From assembly GCA_964383585.1 (NCBI GenBank), contig CAYLHQ010000004.1, forward strand, positions 10,939 to 74,938: 64,000 nt of DNA. The letters are read 5' to 3'. This document shows positions 31,361-63,806 of this stretch, one piece after another. The first letter of the stretch is position 1, and every line of letters begins with the position of its first letter. A program made the translations under genes and the position numbers. Under the pieces are notes generated by a model. That model had not been told where the DNA came from. It made no database searches and saw nothing but the letters and a program-made list of their open reading frames with translations. This DNA is from an uncultured Acidobacteriota bacterium (GTDB lineage Bacteria; Acidobacteriota; Polarisedimenticolia; Polarisedimenticolales; DASRJG01).

Positions 31361-31407
31361 AAAGGGGACTGGCACCTTTTCGTTCCGAAAAGGTGCCAGT
31401 CCCCTTT
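31361..31407. repeat. REP hairpin doublet (20-bp perfect stem, 7-nt loop)
   Basis: AAAGGGGACTGGCACCTTTT cgttccg AAAAGGTGCCAGTCCCCTTT. It lies in a divergent intergenic region. Confidence 0.9.
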
Positions 31408-31427
31408 TCGTGCAAGAATTCGAAGGG

Positions 31428-32534
31428 ATGAAACGAGCCGCTTTTTTCCTCCTGGCCGCCTCGATCGGCGGTGGGTTCGCGCCGTCGCACGCCGCGGACG
31501 CGGTCCGGGCCCGGGTGTCGGCCGACGTCGGGGGGGCGTCGACCCGCGTCGTGATCACGCTCGACCGGGACCTTGCCCACGAGGTGCGGCGCACGCCGCG
31601 CGGTCTCGATGTCGTCTTCACCGCGCCGGTCGCCCCCGATCCGCGGACCCAGGAACTCGCCGACACGATCCTTTCGGGGTGGCGACTCGACGGAGACCGA
31701 ACGCTCGCGCTCGTGACCGGAGAGGGATACCGGCGCTTCGACGTCTTCGAGTTGAGAAACCCGACCCGGATTGTCCTCGATCTCCAGGGAGAGCGCGCCG
31801 CGCCCCCCACTCCTTCCCCCGTCGCGACGTCCCGGCCCTCGCGTGTCATCGTCCTCGATCCCGGACACGGCGGCGCTGAGGAGGGCGCGAAGGGTCCCTC
31901 GGGCCTTCTCGAGAAGGACGTCGTCCTCGACCTCGCGCGGAGGCTCGAACGGGTGCTCGAACGGAGCGGGACGGACGTCGTGCTGACGCGCGACGAGGAC
32001 CGCCTCGTCCCCCTCGACGAGCGGACGGCGATCGCGAACCAGAACCGCGCGGAGCTGTTCGTGTCGATCCACCTCAACAGCGCACCGACCCGTGCGGCGT
32101 TCGGGGCGGAGACCTACTTCCTCTCCCCCGACGCGACGGACGACGAGGCGCGCACCCTCTCCGCCCTCGAGAACCGCGCGTACGCCGCGGACGTGGGGAC
32201 GCCCGCCGCGGCTCCTCCCGCAGACGGCCTCGAGCTGATCCTCTGGGACCTCGCGCAGAACCGTTACCTGGAAGAGAGCGCGCGGCTCGCCGAAGAGGTC
32301 CAGCGGGAGTTGAACCTCCTCGTCGGGACGCGCGACCGCGGGATCCGCCAGGCCCCCTTCACCGTCCTCATGGGGGCGACGATGCCGGCGATCCTCGTCG
32401 AGGTCGGCTTCGTGTCGAACCCCGAGGAAGAGACGAAGCTCCGGGACGACGCCTACCGCGACCGGATCGTCGAGGCGCTCGCCCGCGCGATCGGCACCTT
32501 CCGTCAGGGCGCCGTCGCGGGAGGGGAGCGTTGA
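31428..32534 (+). CDS. N-acetylmuramoyl-L-alanine amidase (AmiC-like, AMIN domain + Amidase_3)
   Basis: Signal peptide, an AMIN-like N-domain (RVVITLDRD...RIVLDL), and a catalytic region VIVLDPGHGG...ELFVSIHLNS...EVGFVSNPEE. Confidence 0.9.
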   Translation: MKRAAFFLLAASIGGGFAPSHAADAVRARVSADVGGASTRVVITLDRDLAHEVRRTPRGLDVVFTAPVAPDPRTQELADTILSGWRLDGDRTLALVTGEGYRRFDVFELRNPTRIVLDLQGERAAPPTPSPVATSRPSRVIVLDPGHGGAEEGAKGPSGLLEKDVVLDLARRLERVLERSGTDVVLTRDEDRLVPLDERTAIANQNRAELFVSIHLNSAPTRAAFGAETYFLSPDATDDEARTLSALENRAYAADVGTPAAAPPADGLELILWDLAQNRYLEESARLAEEVQRELNLLVGTRDRGIRQAPFTVLMGATMPAILVEVGFVSNPEEETKLRDDAYRDRIVEALARAIGTFRQGAVAGGER

Positions 32535-33145
32535 GAGCGTCGATCGCCATCGCCTCCGCCGTATGCCTCCTCGCGCTCGCTTGCGGAGGCGCCCCCGCTC
32601 CGCCGGCCGACGCGCCCGAGGAGAGCGCCTCGCGCGGCCCCGCGCCGGAAGCGGGCGAGGATCCCACCCCCTCCACCATCCCGCGGATCGAGGTCATCCT
32701 CTGGTTCCCCTCCTCGGCGGCGGATGCCCTCGTCGGGGAGCCGGGGGAGATCTTCTCCACGACCGACCCGGGGGCCCGCGCGAAGCAGATCGTGACCGCC
32801 CTCCTCGCCGGGCCGCAGACGGTCGACGCGATGCCGGCGCTTCCCCCGGAGACGACGCTCCGGCAGGTCTACGTCCTGGACGACGGCACCGCCTGGATCG
32901 ACTTCTCGTCGCAGATCCGGAGGGGCCTCGGGGGAGGAAGCTCCGACGAGCGCCTCGCGGTCTACTCCGTCGTCGATTCGGTCGCGTTCAACGTGCCCGA
33001 GATCGGGCGGGTCGGGATCCTCGTCGACGGAAACCCGGTCGAGACGCTGAACGGGCACCTCGACCTGAGACGGCCCCTTCTCCCGGACCGTTCCCTCCTG
33101 ACCGGCCCCGGGATCGTCGGCGCCCCCGAGAGCGGAGAGATCTGA
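32531..33145 (+). CDS. GerMN-domain lipoprotein
   Basis: Lipobox LLALAC, followed by ...VYVLDDGTAWIDFS...AVYSVVDSVAFNVPEIGRVGILVDGNPVETLNGHLDL. TTGA overlap with the amidase stop. Confidence 0.65.
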   Translation: MRASIAIASAVCLLALACGGAPAPPADAPEESASRGPAPEAGEDPTPSTIPRIEVILWFPSSAADALVGEPGEIFSTTDPGARAKQIVTALLAGPQTVDAMPALPPETTLRQVYVLDDGTAWIDFSSQIRRGLGGGSSDERLAVYSVVDSVAFNVPEIGRVGILVDGNPVETLNGHLDLRRPLLPDRSLLTGPGIVGAPESGEI

Positions 33146-33147
33146 CG

Positions 33148-34002
33148 GTGGACCCGCGGCCGATCGGCGTTTTCGACTCGGGGGTGGGAGGGTTGACCGT
33201 CTTCCGCGCGCTCGAACGGGCCCTCCCGCGCGAGCGCCTCTTCTATCTCGGGGATACCGCGCGCGTCCCGTATGGGCCGAAGTCTCCCGAGACGGTCGAG
33301 CGCTTCGGCCTCGAGGCGGCGCGCTTCCTCCGGAAGCACGACGTCAAGGCGGTCGTCGTCGCGTGCAACACCGTCTCGGCGGTCGCGATCGACGCGGTCG
33401 CCGCGGAGGCCCGCGTCCCGACCGTCGGCGTGATCCTCCCCGGGGCGCGGCACGCGGTGAAGGTGTCGAAGACGGGGCGCATCGGCGTGATCGGCACGCG
33501 CGCGACCGTCGCGAGCGAGGCCTACCCGCGGGCGATCCTCGCCCTCCGCGGCGACGCCGAGGTCTTCAGCCAGGCCTGCCCCCTCTTCGTCCCCCTCGCG
33601 GAGGAGGGGTGGACGGACGACGAGGTCGCGCGCGCGGTCGCCGAGCGCTACCTCGCGACCCTGAAGACGTCGGGGGTCGACACCGTCGTCCTCGGCTGCA
33701 CCCACTACCCGCTCCTGAAGCCGACGATCCAGGACGTGATGGGCGACGCCGTCGTCCTCGTCGACTCGGCGGAGGCGGTCGCGGCCGAGGTCCGCGAGTG
33801 GCTCGCCACCGACGCCGTCCTCGCGGCGCCGGAGCGCGATCCGCGGGAGGGGGGAGGGCACCGCTTCTACGTCACCGACGCGCCGGCGCCCTTCCAGGCG
33901 GTCGCCGAGCGCTTCCTCGGCCGCCCCGTCGGGCTCCTCGGGCGGGCGCGTCTCGAAACGCAGGATGCGGAAAACGCGCCGAGCCCGGGGAGGAAACGAT
34001 GA
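33148..34002 (+). CDS. murI: glutamate racemase
   Basis: IGVFDSGVGGLTV, VVACNTVSA, and LGCTHYPLL (the two catalytic Cys motifs). GTG start. Confidence 0.9.
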   Translation: MDPRPIGVFDSGVGGLTVFRALERALPRERLFYLGDTARVPYGPKSPETVERFGLEAARFLRKHDVKAVVVACNTVSAVAIDAVAAEARVPTVGVILPGARHAVKVSKTGRIGVIGTRATVASEAYPRAILALRGDAEVFSQACPLFVPLAEEGWTDDEVARAVAERYLATLKTSGVDTVVLGCTHYPLLKPTIQDVMGDAVVLVDSAEAVAAEVREWLATDAVLAAPERDPREGGGHRFYVTDAPAPFQAVAERFLGRPVGLLGRARLETQDAENAPSPGRKR

Positions 34003-34748
34003 CCGAGCGCCACGACGGGAGGGGGCCGCGCGACCTGCGCCCGGTGACGATCGAGACCGGATGGCTCAAGCGTTCCCCCGGGAGCGCCCTGATCTCCATC
34101 GGCGACACGCGCGTCCTCTGCTCGGTGTCGGTCGAGGAGCGCGTCCCTCCCTTCCTCGTGGGTACGGGGACGGGCTGGGTGACCGGCGAGTACGGGATGC
34201 TCCCGGGCTCTTCGAACCCGCGAATCGCGCGGGAGTCGTCGAAGGGGAGGCCGTCGGGGCGCACGATGGAGATCCAGCGGCTGATCGGCCGCGCCCTCCG
34301 CGTCGTCGTCGACCGGGTCGCCCTCGGCCCGCGCACCCTCTGGATCGACTGCGACGTTCTCCAGGCCGACGGGGGGACGCGGACCGCGAGCGTGACCGGG
34401 GCGTGGGTCGCCCTCGCCCTCGCCCTCGACCGGCTCCGCGAGGCGGGGACGATCGCCGCTCCCGCCCTCACCGGCCAGATCGCAGCGGTGTCGGTGGGGA
34501 TCGTTGCAGGAAACCCCTGCGTCGACCTCGACTACGTCGAGGACTCGGGCGCGGAGGTCGACATGAACGTCGTGCGCACCTCCGACGGGCGTTACGTCGA
34601 GGTGCAGGGGACGGCGGAGACGACGCCGTTCCGCCGCGACGGTCTCGGCGGGTTGCTCGACCTCGCCGACGACGGAATCGACCGGCTCCTCGCGATGCAA
34701 CGGGAGGCGGTGGGGGAGGCGCTCCCCCGCGTCGTGGCGGTGCCGTGA
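33999..34748 (+). CDS. rph: ribonuclease PH
   Basis: RHDGRGPRDLRPV, GSALISIGDTRVLC, GRTMEIQRLIGRALR, and DCDVLQADGGTRTA. Confidence 0.95.
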   Translation: MTERHDGRGPRDLRPVTIETGWLKRSPGSALISIGDTRVLCSVSVEERVPPFLVGTGTGWVTGEYGMLPGSSNPRIARESSKGRPSGRTMEIQRLIGRALRVVVDRVALGPRTLWIDCDVLQADGGTRTASVTGAWVALALALDRLREAGTIAAPALTGQIAAVSVGIVAGNPCVDLDYVEDSGAEVDMNVVRTSDGRYVEVQGTAETTPFRRDGLGGLLDLADDGIDRLLAMQREAVGEALPRVVAVP

Positions 34749-35335
34749 CGAGGCGACTCCTCGTCGCGACAGGGAACGCGGGAAAGCTCCGCGAGTTCCA
34801 ATCGGCGCTCGCGCCCTACGGGATCGAGGTCGTCGGGCTCGAGGCGCTCGCCGACCGGAGCGAGGACGCGGAGACGGGGAGGACGTTCGAGGAGAACGCC
34901 CGGCTGAAGGCCGAGGCGTACTCGCGGCGAACCGACCTACCGGTCCTCGCCGACGACTCGGGGCTCGAGGTCGATGCGCTCGGGGGACGGCCGGGGGTCC
35001 TCTCCGCGCGGCTCGGCGGGCCCGCGATGTCGGACGCCGCGCGCTGCAAGGCGGTCCTCAAGGGGCTCGTCGACGTCCCCGACGAGGCACGCACCGCGCG
35101 GTTCCGATGCGTTCTCGCCCTCGCCCGCGCGGGGAAGACGGTGGCGGTGGTCGAGGGCTCGGTCGAGGGGACGATCCTGCGGGAGCTTCGGGGTGGCGGA
35201 GGGTTCGGATACGACCCGATCTTCTTCCATCCTCCGTCGGGGAAGACCTTCGCCGAGATGACCCCCGAGGAAAAGGAGCGCGTCTCTCACCGAGGAGAGG
35301 CGATCAGAAAAGGGGACTGGCACCTTTTTCGATAG
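34745..35335 (+). CDS. rdgB: dITP/XTP pyrophosphatase (RdgB/HAM1 family)
   Basis: LLVATGNAGKLREF, DDSGLEVDAL, GFGYDPIF, and SHRG. The last 8 codons (KGDWHLFR) are encoded by a REP arm. Confidence 0.9.
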   Translation: MTRRLLVATGNAGKLREFQSALAPYGIEVVGLEALADRSEDAETGRTFEENARLKAEAYSRRTDLPVLADDSGLEVDALGGRPGVLSARLGGPAMSDAARCKAVLKGLVDVPDEARTARFRCVLALARAGKTVAVVEGSVEGTILRELRGGGGFGYDPIFFHPPSGKTFAEMTPEEKERVSHRGEAIRKGDWHLFR

Positions 35336-36035
35336 GGTCCTCCACTGGCGGGCGGGAACTGCCTTCCTCCGGTCCTTTCCGGATGCGCGGCCGTCCGCGC
35401 TCCCGGAGGCTCCCCTCGAGCCCGAGGTCGCGCGCGGTCTTCACCATCCACGCGGGTTCGCCGTAGGGCCTTCCGCGAACGAGGTGCTTCCGGAGCATCT
35501 CGACATCGGGAACCGGCTGATTCAGGTCGACGCGGGCCTCCCAGTCCTCGGGGCGGTCGATCGGGCCTGGGTCGCCGAACGTCGGCCAAGTTCCGCGCCG
35601 CCACCAGTGGATCGAGGACCACGGCCAGAGGGCGGCGCGCGACGCGAGTCCGGCGCGGACCGGGTTCCGCTCGACGTAAAGGAGCACGCGGAGCAGGTGC
35701 TCGTCTTCCTGAACCGGGAACGACTTGAATCGATCCTGCCAGACCCGTCCGCTCGATTCGTGACGGCCGTGGTATCTACGCACGTGGCTCGTCGTGAGCC
35801 TATGAAGGAAAAGGCTCAGGTCGCCGTCCGCAGCGGGCCACAGCACGAGGTGGAAGTGGTTGGGCATCAGGCAGTACGCCAGCACCCGGACGGGATGAGC
35901 CTCGTACGCGCGGGCAATCAGGTTCACGAATTGCTGATAGTCGGAGGCGTCGTGGAAGACCGTCGCTCGACGGTTTCCCCGGTTCATGACGTGGTAGCAC
36001 AACCCTCCGACGCACATGCGGCGGCCTCTCGGCAT
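35304..36035 (-). CDS. REP-associated tyrosine transposase (RAYT; IS200/IS605 TnpA Y1 HUH family)
   Basis: HUH motif in LMPNHFHLVL and a catalytic-Tyr helix in LLYVERNPVRAGL. About 243 aa, flanked by inverted REP arms. Confidence 0.85.
   Translation of the reverse strand: MPRGRRMCVGGLCYHVMNRGNRRATVFHDASDYQQFVNLIARAYEAHPVRVLAYCLMPNHFHLVLWPAADGDLSLFLHRLTTSHVRRYHGRHESSGRVWQDRFKSFPVQEDEHLLRVLLYVERNPVRAGLASRAALWPWSSIHWWRRGTWPTFGDPGPIDRPEDWEARVDLNQPVPDVEMLRKHLVRGRPYGEPAWMVKTARDLGLEGSLRERGRPRIRKGPEEGSSRPPVEDPIEKGASPLF
35308..35329. repeat. single REP arm, AAAAGGGGACTGGCACCTTTTT
   Basis: Exact match to the repeat-family consensus. It forms the left inverted terminus of the RAYT unit, paired with 36143-36163. 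Confidence 0.85.
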
Positions 36036-36110
36036 GGTTCGATTCCGGGGAGGCGGGCGGGACGCCAGCGAAAAACTAGGGCTCTTCGTGGCGGAACGCA
36101 AGGAGAGTGG

Positions 36111-36163
36111 AAAAAGGGGACTGGCACCTTTTCCGTCGAGGGAAAGGTGCCAGTCCCCTTTTT
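36111..36163. repeat. REP hairpin doublet (21-bp stem, 11-nt loop) with flanking T/A runs
   Basis: AAAAAGGGGACTGGCACCTTT tccgtcgaggg AAAGGTGCCAGTCCCCTTTTT. It lies 11 nt below the stop of gene 36174-37802, in a terminator-like position. Confidence 0.9.
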
Positions 36164-36173
36164 CCGCCAGCCT

Positions 36174-37802
36174 CTAGTCCACCAAGTACCAGTAGCTTTG
36201 CGGCGCGCTCAAAGCGCCGGCGTCGACGTAGGAGGTCCCCGAAGCGCCGGCGTCGACGGACGAGTCGAAGTGCGCGGGGGTCGGGCCGAGCGCGCGCCGC
36301 ACGAGGAAGGGGGCGGCGCCGTTGTCGTTCCACGAGAGCTTCACGCCGCTGGTCGCCGCGTCTTTCTCGAGGCGCACCGTGATCCGGGTCGTCGTCACCG
36401 TGAGGGCGAGCCTTGGCCCCTCGCCGCTCTCCCTGCTCGACCACTTCGCGAGCTCCGGTTCGACTCCCTCGATCACGAGTGTCACGATTCCGTCGGCGTC
36501 CCCCTTGACCGTCGACGTCACGCCGTGCGACATCGACCCATCCGGCGTCCACTCGGGGATCGCGCCCAGGTTCCCGGGGTCGAGCGCAGGTGCGTTCGCC
36601 CAGGTGATCGTCTGCTCCCCCCACGAAGTCCCGGCGGACGAGCGCATCAACCCCGTCCCCTTCGTGATCGTGCGCAGGCTCAGCTTCGCGTGGCGGATCT
36701 TCGTGCGCTCGATCCCGGAGAGATCGAACTTCATGTAGGCGCGCGCGACGTTCGTCGGGCCCGAGGTGCGGAGGTAGGTGAGAGAGCCGGAGTTCGACGA
36801 TGGCGCTCCCGACTCGACCGACGCGTCGGCGATCGCGTCCACCGTGACCAGATCGGTCAGGGAGTCCTGCCCCCACCAGCCCCTCGCGGTCGGCTCGGTC
36901 TCGAAAAACCGGTGGAGGAGGTCCGCGACTTTCTGCTCCCCCGAAGGGCGCAGGTGGATCCCGTCGTTCTCGAGGTCGTCGTAAAGCCAAACGAGCCCGT
37001 CATCCCGGCCGAGTTCACCGTCGGTCCACAGATACGGCCCCCACAGAAGGACCGGCGCCTCGACCGGGCCGCGCGCAGCGACCGGGTTGAGTGAGGGGTC
37101 GCCCTCGATCTGGTCCTCCACGAGCCACTTCACCGCGAAGCCGGTTTCGTAGCAGAGCGGTTCTCCGTGGTCGGGGCGATCGCTCCATCCGCCGTAGGTG
37201 CGCGACGAGACGTAGGCGAGGGCGACGTTCGGATACTTGTCCTTGACGTTGCGGGCGATCGCGGCGAGGTCGTCTCGGAGGGCGAGGGCGTGTTCGGGGA
37301 AGAGAAGGGTCGTCTGCGAGCCCCCGCCATGCTTGAGCCAGACGACCTGGACCTGCTCGGGGGTGATCCCGCTCGCGCGAACCCGGGCCTCGAGCTGCTC
37401 CCAGACCGGATCGCCCGGATTCCTCCACTCGAGGCTGCTCGCGGCGCCGACCGCGCCGTTCACGAGGACGAGGCGGCCGTTGCGCCGCACGTCCCGGTCG
37501 GCGTCACGCTCGAAGACCTTGGTCTCCTGGACGGTGTTCGACATCCCGATCGAGATCCAGCCGACCAAACCGTCCGGCGAGGGGACGCCGAGCGCGTCGC
37601 GAGAGACGATCGTCGCAGCGGCGTCCATCGCGATCGCGAGGTGGTCGCCCGGAGGGACGTTCGTCCCGCCGGGGTAGAGACCTCCTTGCTGCGCTTTGTA
37701 GAGCCCGGTCCCCAACTCGTCGAGCGGCGTGAAGCCGGTCGACGGGCCCGCCCACGAATACATCGAAAACAGGGCAACCGCCCCGAGAGCCCCCCACCGC
37801 AT
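36174..37802 (-). CDS. secreted protein: esterase-like N-domain (GMSNT motif), DNRLRE/CBM96-like domain, FN3-like C-terminus
   Basis: Signal peptide MRWGALGAVALFSMYSWA. Also WISIGMSNT, ...ADASVESGAPSSNSG...RAYMKFDLSGI...SWGEQTITWANAP, and the end ...SYWYLVD. Confidence 0.7.
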   Translation of the reverse strand: MRWGALGAVALFSMYSWAGPSTGFTPLDELGTGLYKAQQGGLYPGGTNVPPGDHLAIAMDAAATIVSRDALGVPSPDGLVGWISIGMSNTVQETKVFERDADRDVRRNGRLVLVNGAVGAASSLEWRNPGDPVWEQLEARVRASGITPEQVQVVWLKHGGGSQTTLLFPEHALALRDDLAAIARNVKDKYPNVALAYVSSRTYGGWSDRPDHGEPLCYETGFAVKWLVEDQIEGDPSLNPVAARGPVEAPVLLWGPYLWTDGELGRDDGLVWLYDDLENDGIHLRPSGEQKVADLLHRFFETEPTARGWWGQDSLTDLVTVDAIADASVESGAPSSNSGSLTYLRTSGPTNVARAYMKFDLSGIERTKIRHAKLSLRTITKGTGLMRSSAGTSWGEQTITWANAPALDPGNLGAIPEWTPDGSMSHGVTSTVKGDADGIVTLVIEGVEPELAKWSSRESGEGPRLALTVTTTRITVRLEKDAATSGVKLSWNDNGAAPFLVRRALGPTPAHFDSSVDAGASGTSYVDAGALSAPQSYWYLVD

Positions 37803-37918
37803 ACGGACCGGGACATTACGAAGAGCGCGTCCGTTTTTCCAGAGGTTCCTTCGGGTATTTCCGCGAGACGAACCCGGAAAAGGGCGGTATCGCTTCCGCA
37901 CGATGCCGCAAAAGCAAG

Positions 37919-37967
37919 AAAGGGGACTGGCACCTTTTCCGTTTTGGAAAAGGTGCCAGTCCCCTTT
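37919..37967. repeat. REP hairpin doublet (22-bp stem, 5-nt loop)
   Basis: AAAGGGGACTGGCACCTTTTCC gtttt GGAAAAGGTGCCAGTCCCCTTT. The right arm abuts and overlaps the TAA stop of gene 37966-39579. Confidence 0.9.
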
Positions 37968-39579
37968 AATCGACCAGGTACCAGTAGCTTTGCGAATCGT
38001 CGAGCGCGCCCGCGTCGGAGAACTCCGTTCCCGGGACCGGTGTGCTCACGGCCTTCTCGAAGTCCGCGGGGGTCGGCCCGAGCGCGCGCCGCACGGCGAA
38101 GGGACGGAGCCCCGTGTCGTTCCAGCGGAGGACCACGCCCGCGCTCGCGAGGTCCTTCTCCAACCGCAGCGTGATCCGCGCGGTCGGAACGGTGAGTATC
38201 AGGCGCGGCGGCTCGCCGCTCTCCCGCGCCTGCCACCGCCGCACCGTCGCGTCGGCCCCCTCGACGACGAGCGTGACGACACCGTCGGCGTCTGCGCCCA
38301 CCGTCCCGGTCACGTCGTGCGCCATCGAGGAGTCGTGGCTCCATTTCGGAATCGCCCCGAGCGAGCCGGGATCGGGAGGAGGGGCGTTCGCCCAGGTGAT
38401 CGCCGCCTCGCTCCAACCCGTGTCGGCCGACGACCGCAAGAGTCCGAGCCCCTCGCTCAACGTCCGAAGCGAGAGCTTCGCGTGCACGACGTCCCGTCCG
38501 CCGACGTCGAACTTCAAGTACGCCCGCCCGACCGAGATCACTCCCACCGTACGCAGGAACGTGTTCCCCCCGTTGTTGAGGGAGGGGGACGCCGAGTCGA
38601 CCGACGCGTCGGCGATCGCGTCGATCGCGACGCGGTCGGTCCCGTCATCCGGCCCCCACCACGCCCGCGCGGTTTCCTCGACTTCGAAGAAACGAAGGAG
38701 GAGATCGCCGACCTTCCGCTCCCCCGACGGGGACGGATGGATCGCGTCGGCCTCGAGGTCCTCGCGCAACCACGCGAGCCCGTCCGCGCGCGGCACCTCC
38801 CCGTCCGCCCAGAGGTACGGCCCCCAGAGGAGGAGCGGCGCCTCGACCGGTCCGCGGACGGGATCGAACTCGAGGCCCGGATCCCCGGCGATCTGGTCCT
38901 CGATCAGCCACTTCACCGAGAATCCCGTCTCGTACGAGAGCGGCTCCCCGCGATCGGGCCGGTCGCTCCAGCCGCCGTAGATGCGGGACGACAGGTAGCA
39001 GAGCCTCGCGTTCGGGAAACGGTCGCGCAGGTTCCGCACGATGAGGCGGAGGTCGTTCTCGAGATCGAGGGCATGGGCCGGGAAGGCGGTCGTGGCCGGC
39101 GCACCCTGCGCCGTCTTGAGCCACACGACTTGCACCTGAGCCGCCGCGAGTCCCGCCGCCTCGAGCCGTTCCTCGAGCATCGTCCAGACCGGATGCGCGA
39201 TGTCGCGCCACTCCTGGCTGCTCATCCCCCCCGCCGCTCCGTTCACGAGGACGACCCGCGCATTGCGGCGCGGATCGGCGTCGGAATCGCGTTCGAAGAC
39301 CTTGAACTCCTGGGTCGTGTTCGACATCCCGATCGAGACCCACCCGATGAGCCCGTCGGAGGAGGGGTTCCCCGCCGCGTCGCGCGGTACGACCTCGTGC
39401 GCCTCGGCGAAAGCCGCGTCGAAGTGGCCCGGAGGAGGGACGTTCGCGCCGCCGGGATAGAGCCCGCCCTGGACCCCGAGGTACGTTCCCGGCCCCAGTT
39501 CGTTCAACGGCGTCAGCCCCGCCGCCGCGCCGGCCGGCGAAACGAGACACGCGAGGGAGAGGATCGCCGCGATCCGCAT
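37966..39579 (-). CDS. tandem paralog of 36174-37802 (esterase-like + DNRLRE-like + FN3-like)
   Basis: Collinear with its neighbour along the full length (WVSIGMSNT, RAYLKFDVGG, GWSEAAITWANAP, ...SYWYLVD). Signal peptide MRIAAILSLACLVSPAGA. Confidence 0.7.
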   Translation of the reverse strand: MRIAAILSLACLVSPAGAAAGLTPLNELGPGTYLGVQGGLYPGGANVPPPGHFDAAFAEAHEVVPRDAAGNPSSDGLIGWVSIGMSNTTQEFKVFERDSDADPRRNARVVLVNGAAGGMSSQEWRDIAHPVWTMLEERLEAAGLAAAQVQVVWLKTAQGAPATTAFPAHALDLENDLRLIVRNLRDRFPNARLCYLSSRIYGGWSDRPDRGEPLSYETGFSVKWLIEDQIAGDPGLEFDPVRGPVEAPLLLWGPYLWADGEVPRADGLAWLREDLEADAIHPSPSGERKVGDLLLRFFEVEETARAWWGPDDGTDRVAIDAIADASVDSASPSLNNGGNTFLRTVGVISVGRAYLKFDVGGRDVVHAKLSLRTLSEGLGLLRSSADTGWSEAAITWANAPPPDPGSLGAIPKWSHDSSMAHDVTGTVGADADGVVTLVVEGADATVRRWQARESGEPPRLILTVPTARITLRLEKDLASAGVVLRWNDTGLRPFAVRRALGPTPADFEKAVSTPVPGTEFSDAGALDDSQSYWYLVD

Positions 39580-39619
39580 GCCGCCCCAGACTGTACGGCG
39601 CGACCCGGGGTTTAGCGAG

Positions 39620-39642
39620 AAAAGGGGACTGGCACCTTTTCC
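39620..39642. repeat. single REP arm
   Basis: AAAAGGGGACTGGCACCTTTTCC, 4 nt from the stop codon of the DDE integrase gene. Confidence 0.85.
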
Positions 39643-39646
39643 GACC

Positions 39647-40927
39647 TCACGCCGCCCGCTCGAGCGCGACGACCGGCAGGTGGCGCCGGCCGTCCAAGAA
39701 CCTCACCCGCACGTCGGGGACGGCCCCCGGGGAACCGGCGCCTCGCAACGCCGTGGGCGGGCCTCCCGAGTACGCCTCGTCCGGCGTCGCCCCCGCAAGC
39801 CTCTCGTGCGGTCGCAGCCCGTTGTACCAGCACCGGAAGAGCGAAAGCTCCTCCCGAAGGGCGGCCGCCGAGTAGGCGACGACGACCCGCCGCGTGCACT
39901 CGCGCTTCATCGTCTGGATCAGCCGCTCGATCACCGCGATGCTCCCGAACTGACCGATCGCCCCGAACCACTGCCGCATCCCGAGGCGTGCGCACCACGT
40001 GCGGAACCTCCGCTCGCGAAACTGCCAACCGTGATCCGTGACGAGAACCCGCGGCCGGCTGCCCGACTCGCGCACGACGCAGCCGAGAAACCTCCGCACC
40101 GCCCGCGCGGACGGCTGCCCCCTGAAGACCTCGAACCCGAGGAGGCGTCGCGAAAAGTGGTCGGCGACGACCGCGACCCACCAGCAGTAGGGCCAGCGCT
40201 GCGGGAACGAGAAAGGAAACCACGAAACCCACAAGCCCAGGGAGGTCGGGACGATCGTGAGGTCGCAATGCCAGACATGATTCGGATAGCGCCCGACGAT
40301 CCGCCGTCCCGGCGTGCGCTCGGCGACGGGGTCCCTCCCGGCGCCCGGGTTTCCCTTCTCGCGGAGCATCCGCCGGACCGTGGTCGCCCCGAGATGCAGC
40401 CCTTCGCGGCACAGCACCTGCGCGATCTTCTTGTAGCCGAGACTCGGGCACAGGAGCTTCAATCGCCGTACGATGTACGAGACGAACTCGGGGAACTTGT
40501 TCACGGGAGTGGGGAGTTGAACGACCGCCGTGGGACCTTCGTCTCTCAGCCGCCGCATCCAGGCAGACACGGTGGCGGGGGAGACCAGAAGCCGGTTCGC
40601 GGCCTGCGTGAGGGACCATCCGCGGCAGGCGCGCAGCTCGAGGATGGCGAGCCGTTCGGTCGGTGCGTAGTGCGGCCGCTCCGGCGCGGGGATTCGGGCC
40701 ATGCGGGCGTCCTTGATGCGGATTTCCTCCTGGAGCAACGCCACCTCCTGGCGCAGCCGATCGACCTCGGTCTTCAGACGGACCCGGGCACTGCGATGAT
40801 TCGCCGCCCAGCCGCGGCTCGTGACGAGCGCGGTGTGGGCGAGCGCGCAGACGTGGATGACGGCGGAGCGGACCCGCTTCGGCCACCCCTTGGGAAGCAC
40901 GGCGCCGAAGTTCGGTTGATGGGTCAT
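39647..40927 (-). CDS. DDE-type integrase/transposase (rve core; IS481/IS3-superfamily-like) with N-terminal HTH
   Basis: HTH in RGWSLTQAANRLLVSPATVSAWMRRL. DDE triad: HVWHCDLT, LVTDHGWQF, and E 36 residues later in AVIERLIQTMKRE. RBS GGGAGGA before ATG 40927. Terminal inverted repeats were not identified. Confidence 0.85.
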   Translation of the reverse strand: MTHQPNFGAVLPKGWPKRVRSAVIHVCALAHTALVTSRGWAANHRSARVRLKTEVDRLRQEVALLQEEIRIKDARMARIPAPERPHYAPTERLAILELRACRGWSLTQAANRLLVSPATVSAWMRRLRDEGPTAVVQLPTPVNKFPEFVSYIVRRLKLLCPSLGYKKIAQVLCREGLHLGATTVRRMLREKGNPGAGRDPVAERTPGRRIVGRYPNHVWHCDLTIVPTSLGLWVSWFPFSFPQRWPYCWWVAVVADHFSRRLLGFEVFRGQPSARAVRRFLGCVVRESGSRPRVLVTDHGWQFRERRFRTWCARLGMRQWFGAIGQFGSIAVIERLIQTMKRECTRRVVVAYSAAALREELSLFRCWYNGLRPHERLAGATPDEAYSGGPPTALRGAGSPGAVPDVRVRFLDGRRHLPVVALERAA

Positions 40928-41151
40928 GGATCCTCCCGAAACGGTCGTGAAACGAACCGAGAACATGCGTCGATAACCCTTTACGTGGCAACATCTTCGC
41001 CGCAATTCGGCACCGTTCAGAATCGCTGGCACCGCCTCCGTGGGCCGGCGTTTTCGCGTGGGCTTCGATCGTTGACGCTTTCCCGGGCCCGGTGGTACAT
41101 TTCCGCGGCTGTTCGGGCCGATTCCTCAGGGAAGAGGCCACGTGCGGATGT

Positions 41152-41226
41152 TCCTGAGTAGCTCAGTGGTAGAGCAGGCGGCTGTTAACCGCCGGGTCGG
41201 GGGTTCAAATCCCTCCTCAGGAGCCA
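41152..41226 (+). tRNA. tRNA-Asn (anticodon GTT), CCA encoded
   Basis: Acceptor TCCTGAG/CTCAGGA, D-stem GCTC/GAGC, anticodon stem GGCGG/CCGCC with loop CTGTTAA, T-arm GGGGG-TTCAAAT-CCCTC, discriminator G plus CCA. Confidence 0.95.
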
Positions 41227-41406
41227 GCCCGTACTCACTTCGAAATCAGGGCTCTCTGGTGAACAGGCGTGCGCGGGAAGGCGCGAGGTGTCGCCGAAAT
41301 CGCCAATTGTGAACGGCGTTCAGATTCTCGTGATTCGAACCGGGTGGCGTCGGCAACGCGTTCGGGTGGACAACGGCTCTTTCGCGCTTCCACTCAGTTC
41401 AGAGAG

Positions 41407-54269: not shown

Positions 54270-54294
54270 GCGGTAGTACAGTCTGACGGATGAC

Positions 54295-54326
54295 GGCGGC
54301 GGCCTCTTCGGGGGCCGCCGCCTTTT
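54295..54326 (+). terminator. rho-independent terminator
   Basis: GGCGGCGGCC tcttcggg GGCCGCCGCC followed by TTTT, 26 nt after the stop at 54269. Confidence 0.7.
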
Positions 54327-54348
54327 GCGCGTTTTCGGGGGAGGGTCG

Positions 54349-57300: not shown

Positions 57301-58026
57301 GCCGACTACGTCTTCGCGCGGGACGGCGTGAACGGCTTCATGCGGGAGCGCCTGGGCGTCGCGACCGTCGCCGAGGACACGGGGCAGGGCCAGGTGACCG
57401 GCCAGGGCACGGTGTACGGCGCGCTGGGGACGATCACGCTCAGGAACCTCAGCAGCGACTATTCCGACTCGGTGTCCCCCGACGCGACCGCCGAGCTGGC
57501 TTTCTCCGGGAATCGCGGGAATGCCGGAGTCGACAAGAACGGGTCCTTTTACCGGACGACCTTCCTGGGCTTCGGCATGGAGCGGTTGTTCTCCCCCGCA
57601 GACCGCCAGAAAACGCTGCTCGCGTTCCTCCAGTGGTGCGACGGACTTCCCGGCCTCGACGGCGACGGGGATGCGGTTTCGAACGGCGCCGACTGCATGC
57701 CGGGCGTGGCGGAGGCGTGGACCGCGCCCGCTCCCGTGACCGACCTGCGCCTGCACAAGGCGGAGAACGGATTCACCTGGTCGCAACCCGTGAGCGGCGC
57801 GGGGGCCGTCTACGACCTCGTGCGGAGCGGGAACGCCGGGGACTTCTGGAACGCGACGTGCGTCGCAGCGGGGAGGGAGGAGACCTCGGTGCCCGCGGCG
57901 TGGGACAGCGAGCCGCGCCCGGGAGAGGTCGTCTTCTATCTGGTGAGGGCGTCGAGCCCCTGCGGCACCGCGCCCATGGGCAACGCGTCCGACGGGACGG
58001 GCCGGCAGGGAACCGCCTGCCGATGA
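54349..58026 (+). CDS. secreted S8 subtilisin-like serine protease (about 1225 aa) with FN3-like and other C-terminal domains
   Basis: Signal peptide MRFAAMLGAFAMAASFAHA. Triad: VAIVDEGVD, HGTHVAGIV, GTSMAAPQISG. Internal FN3-like segment (YFWRVRSRNACGFG). C-terminal module ...VVFYLVRASSPCG.... Confidence 0.9.
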   Translation: MRFAAMLGAFAMAASFAHAGSPPDPAGPATTDHTLRLGGFAFDPLAGEPSLPEGWSRSLTAVPDLHLVQFDGPIPGDAPAGMRSAGLEPVRYVYPDTYIVWGRTLDRDSLRGKPRVRWTGDFAPAYRVLPELRDRIGETLDVRILIYRGAGTDTVVEALSRLGSPIGRRTVLDDTLEIAGFRIPGERMRFAAAVPGVYSIQPLTGEWAARAEMSSQVNVGNVDGSGIPFPGYASWLSSVGVDGNGVTVAIVDEGVDEGHPDLAAGHLPCVGPSCTVPASIHGTHVAGIVTGDGTSGVTDSYGFLRGLGVAPGSAYFEQEFVMFRFLPGGVSELIADSRRNGATISNNSWGTSSIARGYNADALMLDIGVRDADPEEPGNQPLFYVQAMGNGGGGVSSQGAPDEAKNVIVVGSTWAADLEGNPIPNIDSLSDNSAHGPALDGRTIPHVVAPGCRVDSTTPDNGEGYGHLFQCGTSMAAPQISGAAAIFTQHYRGLPGAPGDPSPALIKAALLATARDLHGNQDADGATMGHRPDSKQGWGRLDLRALVSQPAGSVLYFDQGRIFEETGENWLREVVPVQPSEPMRVMLVWTDAPGHGLGGNTPAWNNDLNLVVDVGGNSYLGNVFGGDGWSTTGGTADTRNNAEGVFFAVPPERVTIRVVASNLNSDGVPNAGDKIDQDFALVCVNCAYAPGFDLDPVPVTRNVCAPQTAVYDVEVDSLSGYVEPVTLSLAGLPAGASATFDVNPVVPGGRSLLSIDPGTVADGDYALSLHGDAASLARAHPLYLRLRTASPAPAVLSLPADGSTDVSPQPTLEWTAVPWAASYVVEVSTDPTFQTVFYTAYSETPVHKVREILAQGTPYFWRVRSRNACGFGAFSTVRSFTTRDLPPVLLVDDDWDYWGDYQPDYRAAMDALPLSPYFYPVTYDVWDVYAGMAGEEPDYATLALYPKVIWWTGREDFYAGPESFSESELARWFDERGGCFFLTSADYVFARDGVNGFMRERLGVATVAEDTGQGQVTGQGTVYGALGTITLRNLSSDYSDSVSPDATAELAFSGNRGNAGVDKNGSFYRTTFLGFGMERLFSPADRQKTLLAFLQWCDGLPGLDGDGDAVSNGADCMPGVAEAWTAPAPVTDLRLHKAENGFTWSQPVSGAGAVYDLVRSGNAGDFWNATCVAAGREETSVPAAWDSEPRPGEVVFYLVRASSPCGTAPMGNASDGTGRQGTACR

Positions 58027-58036
58027 GGGGATCGGA

Positions 58037-61000: not shown

Positions 61001-61204
61001 GCGGACGTACGGGTCGCGTGGACCGGCGTGGGTGCCTCGAACTACAACGTCTGGCGATCGAGCGACGCTCAGTTCGGGACGGCGGTCTTCGCGGGGGCCT
61101 CCGGGGGGGCGACGAGCTTCACGGATGCGGGCGCGCAGAACCTCCCCGGTCTCCACTACTACCTCGTGCGCTCCGTCAATTCGTGCCGCTGGGAGAGCGA
61201 CTGA
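58037..61204 (+). CDS. secreted S8 subtilisin-like serine protease (1055 aa) with P-domain and C-terminal FN3-like module
   Basis: Signal peptide. Triad: AAILDTGLD, HGTHVAGTL, GTSMTAPAVSG. P-domain: IGDLEVLLYRPG...GTWRLKVTNAG...WTLHL. The end is ...HYYLVRSVNSCRWESD. Confidence 0.9.
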   Translation: MKAPWSVIVAGLVALAYSVPSGASDGKVSLRSTVIDGSRADGTVPTAGPGETARWVVRFQRNPGWLERAALEAAGARVVAPLPGQAYLVDVPPGRPVALAAIAGVDWAAPYLPSDKIAPEVAASLGSGDDADLAVVVQLFGDADPHTVAAELRASGFRVAGSGRGGTFGRLVILATPEEVRNRVAVLAGRNDVFWIGLRGRRTLANDNAIWVGQSGLNGGQTTPVFQKGIRGEGQVAAILDTGLDADMCYFRDPVLGLPLANIGTGSAAVDPSHRKVLAVDFLWNADDPADPADWDNQGHGTHVAGTLAGDDLANPIVHDTGDGHAPAAKIVVQDAGYAADACGDLPGIGCPVTDLNPVFQQAYDQGARVHSNSWNDNENATVQNTYTDASVDVDEFMWNHPDFLIVFACGNHALGGVGTMGSPSTAKNGVATGATYNGQSSIYLSDISAWGPTADGRIKPDVVFPGASIQSAGNDRNVGTNNCGTSGMTGTSMTAPAVSGLALLTRQYFMEGWYPTGSPVPADAFTPTAALLKAMLVNSAVAIPFDAEGRPITIPSNEQGWGRVLLDHALHFSGDARGLWVADDVGDFTSPSDPPVIFQLDMQDTGEPLEVTLAWTDYPSTTAAATNLVNDLDLRVDGPSGGFWGNDFFQGVSKTGGSPDRLNNLEQVLIADPAPGNYSIQISPHAIPAGPQSFALVVTGGRFTVTSGPHPSYWSHVVDDSGPNGNGDGVLDPGESARIQVTLRNAGDAPATAVVGQLFSAYPDGLKVYGGTASYPNMAVGAQGTSASPHYDVTLEPSAQCGQILGATMRITGNGFDVGSAFTTDIGVYEKDYPSTDTPLSIPRSSSTGANSYLSVPVSFPLTEVDATVNIAHTDIGDLEVLLYRPGTSNPPVYLHNNTGVGVSGIHTTYDELTEPDGPGSLDSFVGGEPRGTWRLKVTNAGSKNGTLENWTLHLKSDVPFNCTPRGCGQGVPPAVANTLTVEKSGAADVRVAWTGVGASNYNVWRSSDAQFGTAVFAGASGGATSFTDAGAQNLPGLHYYLVRSVNSCRWESD

Positions 61205-61282
61205 CGGGAGGCGGGCTGCGGGAAATTCCTGGCAGCCTCGAGGGTCGACGTGGCCGGAATGGAGACGCGAACCGGGGCGCGC

Positions 61283-61522
61283 TCAGCCCTTCACGCGGAT
61301 TCCGCGCGCCGCCAGGATCTCGCGAAGGCGCTCGCGCCGGTCCCCGTGGAGCTCGACCGTTCCCTCCACGACCGCGCCGCCGGTGCCGAGCGCGCGCTTC
61401 CACTCGCGCGCGAGTTCCTCGAGGGCGGCGGGTTCGACCGAGAGGTCGTAGACGACGGTCACCGCCTTCCCGCCGCGGCCCTTCTTCTCGAGCCGGAGCT
61501 TCGCGACGGGCGGAGGGGTCAC
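61283..61522 (-). CDS. SUI1/YciH-family translation initiation factor-like protein (core domain only, 79 aa)
   Basis: KLRLEKKGRGGKAVTVVYDL...LAREWKRALGTGGAVVEGTVELHGDRRERLREILAARGIRVKG. GTG 61522 overlaps the upstream stop (GTGA). Confidence 0.7.
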   Translation of the reverse strand: MTPPPVAKLRLEKKGRGGKAVTVVYDLSVEPAALEELAREWKRALGTGGAVVEGTVELHGDRRERLREILAARGIRVKG

Positions 61523-61839
61523 GGGCCGGGCTCCGCGCCGGGCACGATCCGGTCTCCCCGGACGACACGATAGGCGTCGAGCGCGATCGGGACGTAGCGG
61601 ACCGCCGCGCCGAGCGCGCGGAGGACTCGGCTCGGACCCGCGATCATCACGACCCCCGCGACGAGCGCGATCACCGGCCCGGAGCGGCGGAGCGCGGTGG
61701 CGGCGCGCACGAGCGTCGCGACCCAGCCGATCTCGCCGCGGATACGCGCGGCGCACGACCCGATCTCGTCCCGTTGCGCGTGCGAGCGCTCCACGAGAGC
61801 CTCGCGCCTCGCGGCAAGGTCGGCCAGGTGCGATCTCAC
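61519..61839 (-). CDS. YqjK-like small membrane protein
   Basis: 106 aa with an N-terminal coiled segment (LAARREALVERSHAQRDEI) and one hydrophobic helix. Its position after the yqjE-like gene matches the E. coli yqjDEK order. GTGA overlap. Confidence 0.5.
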   Translation of the reverse strand: MRSHLADLAARREALVERSHAQRDEIGSCAARIRGEIGWVATLVRAATALRRSGPVIALVAGVVMIAGPSRVLRALGAAVRYVPIALDAYRVVRGDRIVPGAEPGP

Positions 61840-62213
61840 CGTTTCTCCTCGAGCGACTCGTAGTCCCGCTCGAGCTCGGTGAGGCTCGCGTCGAACATGC
61901 GGGGCTTCGACTGGACGAGCCCCCGCACGTACAGGTACGAGCCCCCCGCCGCCGCGAGGAAGACGGCCGCCAGGATTCCTGCGGCGAGCGGCCGGTGCGA
62001 CTCGTCCACGCTCAGGAGGACGAGCACGGCGATGAAGGTGAGTCCCACGACCGCGCAGAGGAGGGCCGCGAGGCTCCAGATCAAGACGGCCACGAGCCGC
62101 GCGAGCTCCTCCTGCAGTTCCGTCGAGAGGAGCTCGACGCGGTTGTGCACCATGGCGACGAGCGTCGCGAGGAGCGCCTTCAGCGAGTCGAGGATCCCCA
62201 AGGGGCCGCTCAA
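61836..62213 (-). CDS. YqjE-like (holin-X/DUF1469-type) membrane protein
   Basis: LLATLVAMVHNRVELLSTELQEELARL followed by two TM helices. TTG start overlapping the upstream stop (TTGA). Confidence 0.65.
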   Translation of the reverse strand: MSGPLGILDSLKALLATLVAMVHNRVELLSTELQEELARLVAVLIWSLAALLCAVVGLTFIAVLVLLSVDESHRPLAAGILAAVFLAAAGGSYLYVRGLVQSKPRMFDASLTELERDYESLEEKR

Positions 62214-62512
62214 CGACGGTTCGCGAGGGACCCGACGATGAAGCCGAGACCGGCGGCGATCGCGATCGCCGTCCAGGGGTTCTCGTGGACGTACTCGTCG
62301 GTCGACTTCGCGGCGGCCTTCGCGCGGGCGCCGATCTCGGCCCCCGCCTCCTTCATGCGCTCGCGGGCGGCGGCGAGCGATTCCTTCGCGCGGGCGCGGA
62401 CCTGCTCGATCTTCTCTCCGGTCTGGCCCGCGGTCGCGGCGAGCAGCGCCTCCGCGTCCTCGACGACCACCTTGAGGTCCCGGAGGAGCTTGTCGGTCGT
62501 GACCTGTTCCAT
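62210..62512 (-). CDS. ElaB/YqjD/DUF883-family membrane-anchored ribosome-binding protein
   Basis: LLRDLKVVVEDAEALL...TDEYVHENPWTAIAIAAGLGFIVGSLANRR (canonical C-terminal anchor). Start at MEQVTTDK (ATG 62512). Confidence 0.8.
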   Translation of the reverse strand: MEQVTTDKLLRDLKVVVEDAEALLAATAGQTGEKIEQVRARAKESLAAARERMKEAGAEIGARAKAAAKSTDEYVHENPWTAIAIAAGLGFIVGSLANRR

Positions 62513-62566
62513 GCGTGTCTCCTTATCGATGTCGATGATCCATCCTTTCACTCTACCGGACCGGGG

Positions 62567-62929
62567 CTATCTTCGCTCCAGGATCTCGATGTCGTAACCG
62601 TTCGGGTCCTTGACGAAGATGTAGCGGGACCCGACCTCCGGCCGGGACCGGCGGTACCACCATCCTCTGGCCTCCACCTCCCGCACCACCGATTCGAGGT
62701 CGTCCGTCCGGAAGGCGAGGTGGCCGAACTGGTCGCCCAGCGTGTACTCGGAGCGGCCGTGGTTGTACGTGAGCTCGACGGTCCGGCCCCCGCCGTCCTC
62801 GAGGAAGACGAGCGTCGCCTCGTCCCCGATCGACTTCCGGCGCGTCTCCTCGAGACCGAGGAAGTCGCAGTAGAACTCGAGCGTCCGGTCGAGGTCCTTG
62901 ACGCGGATCATCGTGTGGGCGAATTCCAA
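62567..62929 (-). CDS. gloA: lactoylglutathione lyase (glyoxalase I)
   Basis: FAHTMIRVKDLDRTLEFYCDFLGL, VELTYNHG, FGHLAF, and FVKDPNGYDIEILE align motif-for-motif with E. coli GloA. Confidence 0.85.
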   Translation of the reverse strand: MEFAHTMIRVKDLDRTLEFYCDFLGLEETRRKSIGDEATLVFLEDGGGRTVELTYNHGRSEYTLGDQFGHLAFRTDDLESVVREVEARGWWYRRSRPEVGSRYIFVKDPNGYDIEILERR

Positions 62930-62959
62930 CGGGAGTCCTCCGGAGCGCCGCTCTGGGCG

Positions 62960-63259
62960 CTAGGAAACTTCCTCGAGCACCTTGAGGAAGGCGTCGTAGG
63001 GGAGGGCCTGCCAGCTCTCGGCCGACGTCGCCCCTTCCGAGCGGGAGATCAGAGAGACCCGGTGTGCCGTCTCGACGTCGGGCGCCTCGTAGAGGTCCAT
63101 GAAATCGTACGGGCCGAGGATGGCGTAGTGCGCGATCCACTTCACCTCGGGGCAGCGTTCTTTCACCTTCTTGAGCCAACCCTTGCCGGTCTTGCGCCGG
63201 CCTTCGGCATCGTGGAGGGTTTCGGGGCCGAGTCGCGACATCAGGACGAAGGTGGGCAT
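62960..63259 (-). CDS. GYD-domain protein (99 aa)
   Basis: MPTFVLMSRLGPETL...WIAHYAILGPYDFMDLYEAPDVETAHRVSLI. AGGAGG RBS before ATG 63259. Confidence 0.8.
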   Translation of the reverse strand: MPTFVLMSRLGPETLHDAEGRRKTGKGWLKKVKERCPEVKWIAHYAILGPYDFMDLYEAPDVETAHRVSLISRSEGATSAESWQALPYDAFLKVLEEVS

Positions 63260-63759
63260 GGCGGAACCTCCTTTCCGCAGCGGGTGGAACTCGACTCTTC
63301 GCCATCCTACTCTAGACATTCCGGTTGGGACTAGAGTTCGGTCGCGGGGTCCGATGAGCCCGCGGACCCTGCCGTCTCGAGGCATGAGCACGGCGAGCCG
63401 GGAACGGCGAGAGTCGGCATGTGGGACGGGAACTCGGACTCCTCGTGATCCTTGCGCGCTCGGTGGTTGGGACGTTGTTTCGGCGGCGGAGGGACCGAAC
63501 GTCGTGAGGTCCGGGGCGGGCGACGTCGCGCCGGCGGGGACCTTCCGGGACCCGTTTCGATCCGTGAGGACCTCGACGACGGGACGACGCTCGCCTTCGA
63601 AGGGACGCTCACGCTCGAACCGCAGCCGGAGGTGGCGTTCTTTTTCGCGTACGGGCGCACCTCGACACGGAAGCCGACGCGGAGAACCGCGAGTTGGCGG
63701 CGACCCGATCGACGTGACCCTCTGGGTCGCGCAGCTCTCGGCGGGCGTGATTGAGGAAC

Positions 63760-63806
63760 GGGGACAGGCACCTTTTCGAGCACGAAAAGGTGCCTGTCCC
63801 CTTTTT
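63760..63806. repeat. variant REP hairpin (19-bp stem, 4-nt loop) followed by T5; terminator-like
   Basis: GGGGACAGGCACCTTTTCG agca CGAAAAGGTGCCTGTCCCC TTTTT. It differs from the main family (ACTGG becomes ACAGG) with a matching change in the other arm. Confidence 0.8.

Follow-up and report, generated by a model that had tools for sequence, protein, structure and literature searches.

Tyrosine transposases of TnpA_Y1 subclass 2.1 correspond to group 1 of the repetitive extragenic palindromic (REP)-associated tyrosine transposases (RAYTs) of Bertels 2017 and to the TIRYT proteins of Di Nocera 2013 (Quentin 2018, PMC6006769). They have a median length of ~238 aa, the motifs NH[YF]H/NHVH, W[EQ] and Y[IV]xLNP and a conserved C-terminal extension (PMC6006769), which was described as helix-turn-helix-like (Bac_DnaA_C/HTH_23/HTH_28). 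TIRYT genes lie between terminal inverted repeats (TIRs) that have the motif GGGGWSAS in common, not between GTAG-tagged REPs (Di Nocera 2013, PMC3733652); in some genomes the TIRs make up moderately abundant dispersed families, REP-like in their arrangement in dimers or clusters, and TIRYT systems were reported from Acidobacteria and other phyla (PMC3733652). The 16-mers flanking group-1 genes occur ∼12 times per replicon, which is more than for housekeeping genes and far less than for groups 2 and 3 (Bertels 2017, PMC5581495). Here we consider a family of repeats in a 64 000-nt stretch of DNA from an uncultured Acidobacteriota bacterium (assembly GCA_964383585.1, contig CAYLHQ010000004.1, positions 10 939 to 74 938), further called the window. 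A 21-nt arm, AAAAGGGGACWGGCACCTTTT, occurs in the window in 10 copies at six loci, with a chance expectation of 0, and two of the arms flank a gene for a Y1/HUH tyrosine transposase.

We conclude, with a probability of about 0.78, that the window repeats are cognate end-sequences of this apparently single-copy, domesticated transposase and that the dispersed doublets of arms are its miniature derivatives. The gene together with its flanking arms is a REPtron/TIRtron-like unit. The family consists of TIR-type repeats of a group-1 RAYT (TIRYT); it is a further member of an already known class and not a new type of element. A preliminary description of the window had called the repeats a REP/REPIN-like family; it had overlooked the RAYT gene, whose position between the repeats strengthens that proposal.

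The transposase unit and the dispersed arms

Genes of the window (G+C ∼70%) were established from third-position G+C, Pfam and the gene calls on identical public contigs. The product of the transposase gene, present in one copy in the window, matches Pfam Y1_Tnp (E = 2e-13) and passes NCBIfam NF047646 REP_Tyr_transpos (REP-associated tyrosine transposase) as a borderline case, with 81 bits at a cutoff of 80. Among PDB entries it is closest to 4ER8, the TnpA_REP of E. coli (E = 1.5e-8, or 4.8e-10 by profile search); structures of ISDra2 TnpA are the next matches. The HUH motif PNHFHLV, the WQ pair and the catalytic Tyr in YVERNP are invariant in the alignment of homologues, and the motifs align to HMH and YIYINP of 4ER8. 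An identical 237-aa protein is on record (P0001), starting at the third Met; for longer readings of the open reading frame (ORF), with 265 and 243 aa, exact look-up gave no match.

Judged by motifs and length, not by tree placement, the protein fits TnpA_Y1 subclass 2.1/RAYT group 1: it has 237 aa, NHFH, WQ and YVERNP, with R replacing L in the last motif. Its C-terminal extension of ∼90 aa has a conserved W...LGL...RGRP; a Pfam search with the C-terminal 96 aa gave no match with the E threshold raised to 10.

Inverted arms stand on either side of the gene, one upstream (36162 to 36142) and one lying over the stop codon (35328 to 35308). Read along the sense strand of the transposase gene, the outer arm on the upstream side is AAAAGGGGAC... 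and recurs downstream as its reverse complement; this downstream arm encodes the last 8 codons of the gene, EKGASPLF*. The upstream arm belongs to a doublet situated 95 nt from the transposase start and 77 nt from the alternative ATG. When compared with GGGGWSAS, the motif of published TIRs, GGGGACAG of the doublet at 63756 agrees in 8/8 positions and GGGGACTG of the other arms in 7/8. Neither a GT[AG]G nor a CGTC tag was seen on either side in a position-frequency table of 98 arms, the flanks being weakly G/A- and C-biased.

On the opposite strand, the downstream arm extends the convergent Ham1/RdgB gene by ...KGDWHLFR*. The tails of both genes are conserved in a related genome (L122, see below).

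To count the arms we searched for the consensus AAAAGGGGACTGGCACCTTTT, allowing as many as 3 mismatches, and ran 100 dinucleotide shuffles as a control; exactly 10 arms were found in the window and 0 in the shuffles, and looser core searches gave no additional degenerate copies in the window. The six loci, with four inverted doublets (8/10 arms) and two solitary arms, had been described before with coordinates right within 1–4 nt; the tally of four doublets to two singlets fits the predominance of doublets by which REPINs are recognized. The arms are at least 95% identical across the window copies and are confined to extragenic DNA or to ends of genes, and five of the six loci are no more than 8.3 kb away from the transposase gene. 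This count holds for 71 kb, as the window could be extended by 7.2 kb.

The four doublets are the top repeat-like short-range inverted repeats of all 64 kb. The 21-nt arms of a doublet are spaced by 7–9 nt; as hairpins, the doublets have arms of 22–26 nt, 95–100% complementary, and loops of 3–5 nt. Folded as RNA they reach −43 to −53 kcal/mol (z from −8 to −9), while solitary arms fold weakly, marginally better than shuffles (z ∼−1.2).

Copies of the arm beyond the window carry further evidence. A metagenome scan with the ACTGG arm, the main type in the window, gave 50 loci; ∼20 of these came from one related metagenome with G+C of 0.67–0.72, matching the window, and nearly all were at loci absent from the window. 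The lineage thus has the repeat in far larger numbers than the six loci of the window would suggest, and the case agrees with the modest repeat numbers that Bertels described for group 1. Among close pairs of arms, 35 had the polarity ‘+−’ (GGGG ends outward) versus 3 ‘−+’ and 1 ‘++’; the latter four are junctions of neighboring elements, so that genuine exceptions number 0 versus 35. Dispersed doublets have a polarity identical to that of the arms flanking the gene. Hairpins of either polarity would be equally stable; what the rule mirrors is therefore the layout of the unit (arm, gene, inverted arm) rather than the stability of the fold. The most fitting interpretation is that the doublets are miniatures of the transposase unit that lack the gene, similar to REPINs or miniature inverted-repeat transposable elements (MITEs), and that the single arms are its half-elements.

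If it works like TnpA of IS608 and TnpA_REP of E. coli, the enzyme would recognize folded, single-stranded DNA of the arm. The fold in question could be either a short stem, AAAAGG/CCTTTT, with the loop GGACWGGCA, or the long hairpin of a doublet. The enzyme would then nick and rejoin DNA at the outer end of the arm, and over long times units could have been copied or moved within a vertically inherited lineage. Catalysis on the window arms, mobility and effects on transcription are what we infer for this system; the repeat family, the identity and motifs of the gene, the arms around it, their conservation in relatives and distant homologues, and the rule of polarity were observed.

Arms of the same 21 nt also delimit a MITE-like family of ∼72 nt in another lineage (G+C 0.62–0.66), where they enclose a conserved interior of 29–30 nt (GTGCGAAGCACCC...GGGCC...GGC) with small hairpins of its own; the arms are often of two types, GGGGACTGGCTCC versus GGGGACAGGCACC. 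Members were seen at L132 2540, L134 5136-5249, L137 1888/3248/3498/6051, L142 1776, L149 1793, L150 736, L167 2085, L170 5913 and L173 125.

Table 1. Repeat arms, the transposase gene and neighboring features, in coordinates of the window
Feature	Position	Structure or product	Folding energy	Context
Transposase unit	35308-36162	Gene and flanking arms		
Y1/HUH tyrosine transposase gene	35304-36017 (minus)	237 aa; alternative upstream ATG at 36035		
Doublet	31360-31380(+)/31388-31408(-)	22-bp perfect stem, 3-nt loop	-45.5 kcal/mol	212-nt divergent intergenic region; 145 nt upstream of CarboxypepD_reg-like gene; 19 nt 5' of the ATG opening the amidase-Germane-MurI-RNase PH-Ham1 gene string
Single arm	35308-35328(+)	Exact match		Right-hand terminal repeat of the transposase unit
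Doublet	36112-36132(+)/36142-36162(-); feature span 36109-36165	26-bp stem	-53.2 kcal/mol, z -8.7	9 nt past the stop of CBM96 gene 2; outer arm (36162 to 36142, minus) is the left-hand terminal repeat of the transposase unit
Doublet	37918-37938(+)/37948-37968(-)	22-bp perfect stem	-43.9 kcal/mol	Between tandem CBM96/DNRLRE paralogues; TAA of the upstream paralogue (37966-37968, minus) inside the arm
Single arm	39620-39640(+)			Between rve gene stop (39647) and start of CBM96 paralogue 1 (39579)
Doublet	63756-63776(+)/63785-63805(-)	ACAGG variant, GGGGACAG	-43.2 kcal/mol	626-nt divergent intergenic region, GYD-domain gene (62960-63259, minus) on one side and DUF8300/BNR gene (63886-, plus) on the other
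Overlap of Ham1/RdgB and transposase genes	35300-35335	Convergent genes, 32-nt overlap		Across the single arm; Ham1/RdgB ends at 35335
Tandem CBM96/DNRLRE paralogues	36174-39579			Immediately upstream of the transposase gene
rve gene (IS481/IS3-like DDE transposase)	39647-41032			In the region 39647-41226, abutting tRNA-Asn
tRNA-Asn	41152-41226			
TTGACA hexamer	63826-63835			Directly 3' of the 63756 doublet, ~55 nt before the DUF8300/BNR start

Related genomes and distant homologues

In a related genome (L122, GCA_964628935.1) with a transposase 82% identical to that of the window, the order CBM96, RAYT, Ham1, RNase PH, MurI, Germane, amidase is kept. The arm over the stop codon is exactly conserved in place there (L122/L123/L124), and a doublet upstream of the transposase gene is present as well, interrupted by an assembly gap. 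The run of N (L122 2184-2193) falls exactly in the middle of the doublet; evidently, such hairpins break short-read assemblies.

A site upstream of the amidase gene, 19–22 nt before its start, is occupied in three lineages and takes a different form in each of them. In the window the doublet is tight, and in L122 there is one arm only; L143, whose operon has ∼75% nucleotide identity to that of the window, has a doublet with 43 nt between its arms. The doublet at 63756 has an orthologue in L130. Slow structural change combined with persistence is what is reported for REPIN populations. No mobility event was seen in these comparisons; what they show is persistence.

The TTGACA hexamer next to the 63756 doublet, with surroundings conserved in L130, may be the promoter of the DUF8300/BNR gene. 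For the window RNase PH, the closest relatives with a name, ∼70% identical, come from metagenome-assembled genomes (MAGs) of Polarisedimenticolaceae and Terriglobia, which tentatively suggests a host probably related to Acidobacteriota.

Of seven distant homologues of the transposase that were inspected, from other phyla and with 33–60% identity, six had arms of this class at corresponding places; the seventh, from Aquisphaera (L175), has only a 9-nt remnant, GGGGACATT. The upstream arm was located 16–80 nt before the start. The downstream arm overlapped or abutted the stop codon in the Phycisphaerales homologue L178 (arm AAAAGGGGTCAGGCTACTTTT), in L181 (arm AAAAGGGGACGGGCACGTTTA around two paralogues, with extra copies) and in L182, L183 and L184 (arm AAAAAGGGGACATTCTACTTTT); in the Woeseiaceae homologue L176 (arm GGGGACATTCTGCTTTTT, with a doublet downstream) the downstream arm lay ∼60 nt beyond the stop. 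The arm of L156 was GGTGTCAGGCTTCATTTT. Motifs of the GGGGWSAS type were present in arms of the homologues as GGGGTCAG, GGGGACGG and GGGGACAT. Conservation was strongest in the outer AAAAGGGGAC; the inner half of the arm changed with the protein.

In L181 (6072-10690) the two Y1 paralogues that share AAAAGGGGACGGGCACGTTTA are 3.9 kb apart; more copies of the arm lie between them, at 8336, 8451 and 9942.

These data also bear on the possibility that the arms are TIRs, or MITE derivatives, of the neighboring DDE transposase (rve) gene. A single arm does lie 6 nt past the stop of that gene; however, there is no partner arm across it, and the arms bracket the Y1 gene instead. Furthermore, both the arms and the Y1 gene are present in L122, where the stretch concerned has no rve gene, and Y1 homologues with no rve neighbor carry arms of the same kind. 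We rejected the arms as ends of the rve insertion sequence on account of the missing partner arm; the probability left to this origin is close to negligible.

The rve gene scores below the NCBIfam cutoffs for both IS481 and IS3. G+C is slightly lower (0.65–0.67) between 36 and 42 kb of the window, a region that could represent a small island or a hotspot for insertions.

One could also suppose that segmental duplication multiplied the copies along with neighboring genes, or that they are operator-like palindromes bound by a protein, and thus do not form a dispersed mobile family. Two doublets do follow the tandem CBM96 paralogues, both of which have QSYWYLVD as their C-terminus. Still, the paralogues are only 61% identical versus at least 95% for the arms, and for this reason co-duplication with them was rejected; moreover, the remaining four loci have unrelated flanks, and the related metagenome has ∼20 further loci that are unrelated. 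Arms of 21 nt, some of them solitary, are atypical of operators. Both variants of this explanation appear very improbable.

CBM96 genes recur next to the transposase gene: L122 shows one such gene where the window has two, and in the Woeseiaceae locus L176 (5354-9916) a CBM96-containing gene is likewise located immediately upstream of the homologous transposase gene.

The arm core in other phyla and the terminator question

A scan of a genome collection with AAGGGGACNGGCACCTTT gave, among the matches listed, almost only Collinsella. Genomes of this genus have tens of copies of the core, with an estimated excess of ∼20 copies per Mb. There the core caps a longer hairpin, AAACCACCACA-AAGGGGACAGGCACCTT-TGTGGTGGTTT, with a different outer stem (L001-L120, e.g. 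L069 3426, L053 4954, L002 4617); that the tip of this hairpin coincides with the arm core supports a single arm acting as a stem-loop. The Collinsella hairpin had no Rfam match.

The core of 18–21 nt (motif AAAGGGGACWGGCACCTTT) was also found, as exact copies, in contigs with G+C from 27 to 73%, including MAGs of Gemmataceae and ‘Deltaproteobacteria’. When the cross-phylum copies were screened for a RAYT by tblastn and by a profile run on six-frame ORFs, a gene was found in L156 only, and this gene is flanked by a different TIR. As a less likely reading, AAAAGG-GGACWGGCA-CCTTTT may be a pan-bacterial, deeply conserved hairpin signal in single-stranded DNA, serving either as the common recognition site of group-1 RAYTs/TIRYTs or in a host function independent of a transposase.

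Exact or near-exact 21-nt arms were present at 27–42% G+C in L127 (790 and 1451), L148 (116), L155 (399), L164 (583 and 1007), L152 (232) and L138 (163); in such contigs the G+C-rich core stands out amid A+T-rich intergenic DNA. The low-G+C contig L155 looks Bacteroidota-like by eye, with what seem to be RluE-like, SMI1/KNR4-like and rhodanese-like proteins.

Hairpins of this stability call to mind intrinsic terminators. The preliminary description had placed three doublets right after stop codons and suggested that they could act as bidirectional terminators. Two doublets, at 36112 and 37918, do lie 0–9 nt past stops of CBM96 genes (minus strand); before the doublet at 63756 there is no convincing gene end. 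A terminator function is thus possible for the two doublets at 3'-ends of genes; it is not general, as the other two are situated between divergent genes. The same description had noted that the doublet at 31360 separates divergent starts and that the family is therefore not simply one of terminators, and in this it was right.

Could the hairpins nonetheless be mainly host intrinsic terminators, possibly bidirectional, kept by selection on RNA structure and similar to each other because of a shared design? The doublets are very stable and have runs of A and T alongside; in addition to the positions at the two CBM96 genes, the doublet at 37920-37966 (minus strand) is accepted by a simple scan for terminators, the arms covary more than in shuffles (see below), and the copies in Collinsella are terminator-like with no RAYT nearby. 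On the other hand, three of the four doublets fail the scan and single arms fold weakly. A hairpin 19 nt before the ATG of a housekeeping operon, at a site occupied in three lineages, would have to be passed by transcription; in the window this distance leaves no room for a promoter, and transcripts of the operon presumably run through it. Neither the outward polarity of the GGGG ends, nor the identity of the 21-nt arms, nor the presence of the same arms around a Y1 transposase gene, both here and in distant homologues, is explained by terminators; mismatches at positions 11 and 15 of the arms are frequent. We consider such an origin of the family unlikely. As a by-product of repeats that belong to the transposase unit, a role as terminator or stabilizer of 3'-ends is plausible at the two CBM96 genes, and the hairpins in 5' regions are likely to be transcribed structures.

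At gathering scores, the only Rfam match in the window was tRNA-Asn, and there was none in the related loci; with relaxed thresholds the doublets matched only miRNA hairpin models, far below threshold.

The question of selection on structure had been raised by the doublet at 63756, where ACAGG in one arm is accompanied by CCTGT in the other, as originally described; the change was taken as compensatory, a sign that the structure itself is maintained. We aligned the 21-nt arms of 37 distinct doublets, a sample with a bias, since doublets entered it only when one of their arms fitted the search pattern. The arms covary overall, with changes on both sides at 13 of the 21 pairs, a number reached in 0 of 500 shuffles; concordant changes at positions other than 11 exist, for instance, in L137 and L174. 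At position 11, the site of the A/T polymorphism, the pairs were U-A in 15 doublets, A-U in 3 and U-G in 1, and the remaining 18 were unpaired; position 15 was unpaired in 14 of the 37. The L130 orthologue of the 63756 doublet has one arm of the A type and one of the T type, which means that the ‘compensatory’ state seen in the window is one step from a mismatch. The proposed covariation across copies thus appeared for the arms as a whole and not at position 11, for which it had been proposed. Covariation would be equally expected if both arms had to fit the same protein or if doublets were regenerated from one arm; the argument for a maintained structure is therefore not established. In general, matched changes in both arms of a hairpin do not by themselves prove a selected RNA structure.

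Several points weigh against our interpretation of the repeats as ends of a domesticated transposase and its miniatures. REPs were not found for subclass 2.1 by Quentin et al. (PMC6006769). The ACTGG arm deviates from GGGGWSAS in one position. The copies are clumped: arms are absent from 1–31 kb and 40–63.7 kb of the window and from the 7.2 kb beyond it (identical JGI contig Ga0484859_0000031). No clean pair of filled and empty sites was found; every comparable orthologous site was occupied in the relatives and only the architecture differed. No RAYT-like ORF was detected by tblastn, or by a profile on six-frame ORFs, in ∼0.84 Mb around 138 copies in Collinsella; the motif can therefore persist, or serve a purpose, with no transposase next to it. 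Finally, we know of no enzyme of subclass 2.1 that was tested biochemically.

Comparison with known systems

The locus is a compact example of a group-1 RAYT (TIRYT) with REPIN-like repeats of its own in an uncultured high-G+C bacterium. It offers a ready pair of enzyme and substrate, the 237-aa protein and the 21-nt arm with its conserved outer AAAAGGGGAC, for the largest and most widespread RAYT group. For annotation, the repeats account for the odd C-terminal tails of two genes, for strong hairpins in two promoter regions and for assembly gaps. The 21-nt sequence of the arm was not found in the searchable literature, where strings of its core gave irrelevant matches only.

With intrinsic terminators the doublets share stable G+C-rich hairpins and runs of A/T at some gene ends, and with MITEs the gene-less form with inverted ends. 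Unlike ordinary terminators, the window arms have a common sequence, a common polarity and a link to a Y1 gene, and neither a target-site duplication nor a DDE transposase is involved.

Transposases of the IS200/IS605 family (TnpA of IS608 and ISDra2) resemble the window protein in catalytic fold and motifs, and both would use subterminal hairpins on single-stranded DNA. The differences are that the window gene occurs once in the window, in conserved synteny, with no tnpB and with Y---NP in place of Y---Q, and that the ends of the window transposase appear to have spread without the gene.

The resemblance to REP/REPIN-RAYT systems, such as the REPtron of E. coli and the REPINs of Pseudomonas (Nunvar 2010, Bertels & Rainey 2011, Ton-Hoang 2012), is closer. 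As in those systems, palindromic repeats flank a Y1/HUH gene that has one copy in the 64 kb and is apparently vertically inherited; the repeats are extragenic and mostly hairpin-forming inverted doublets, and their sites and synteny persist among relatives. Unlike canonical REPs, which have tens to hundreds of extragenic copies in a genome, the hairpins lack GT[AG]G or CGTC at their foot, and the copy number seems modest; unlike the RAYT of the E. coli REPtron, the window protein is of group 1/subclass 2.1, for which association with REPs was reported as absent or weak.

TIRtrons (PMC3733652) differ from the unit described here in two respects: the main arm of the window is off their motif by one position, and its doublets form tight, near-perfect hairpins of 22–26 bp, which are more REPIN-like. 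With TIRtrons the unit shares a Y1 gene placed between inverted repeats, a downstream repeat that lies over the 3'-end of the gene, the GGGGWSAS motif and dispersed dimers.

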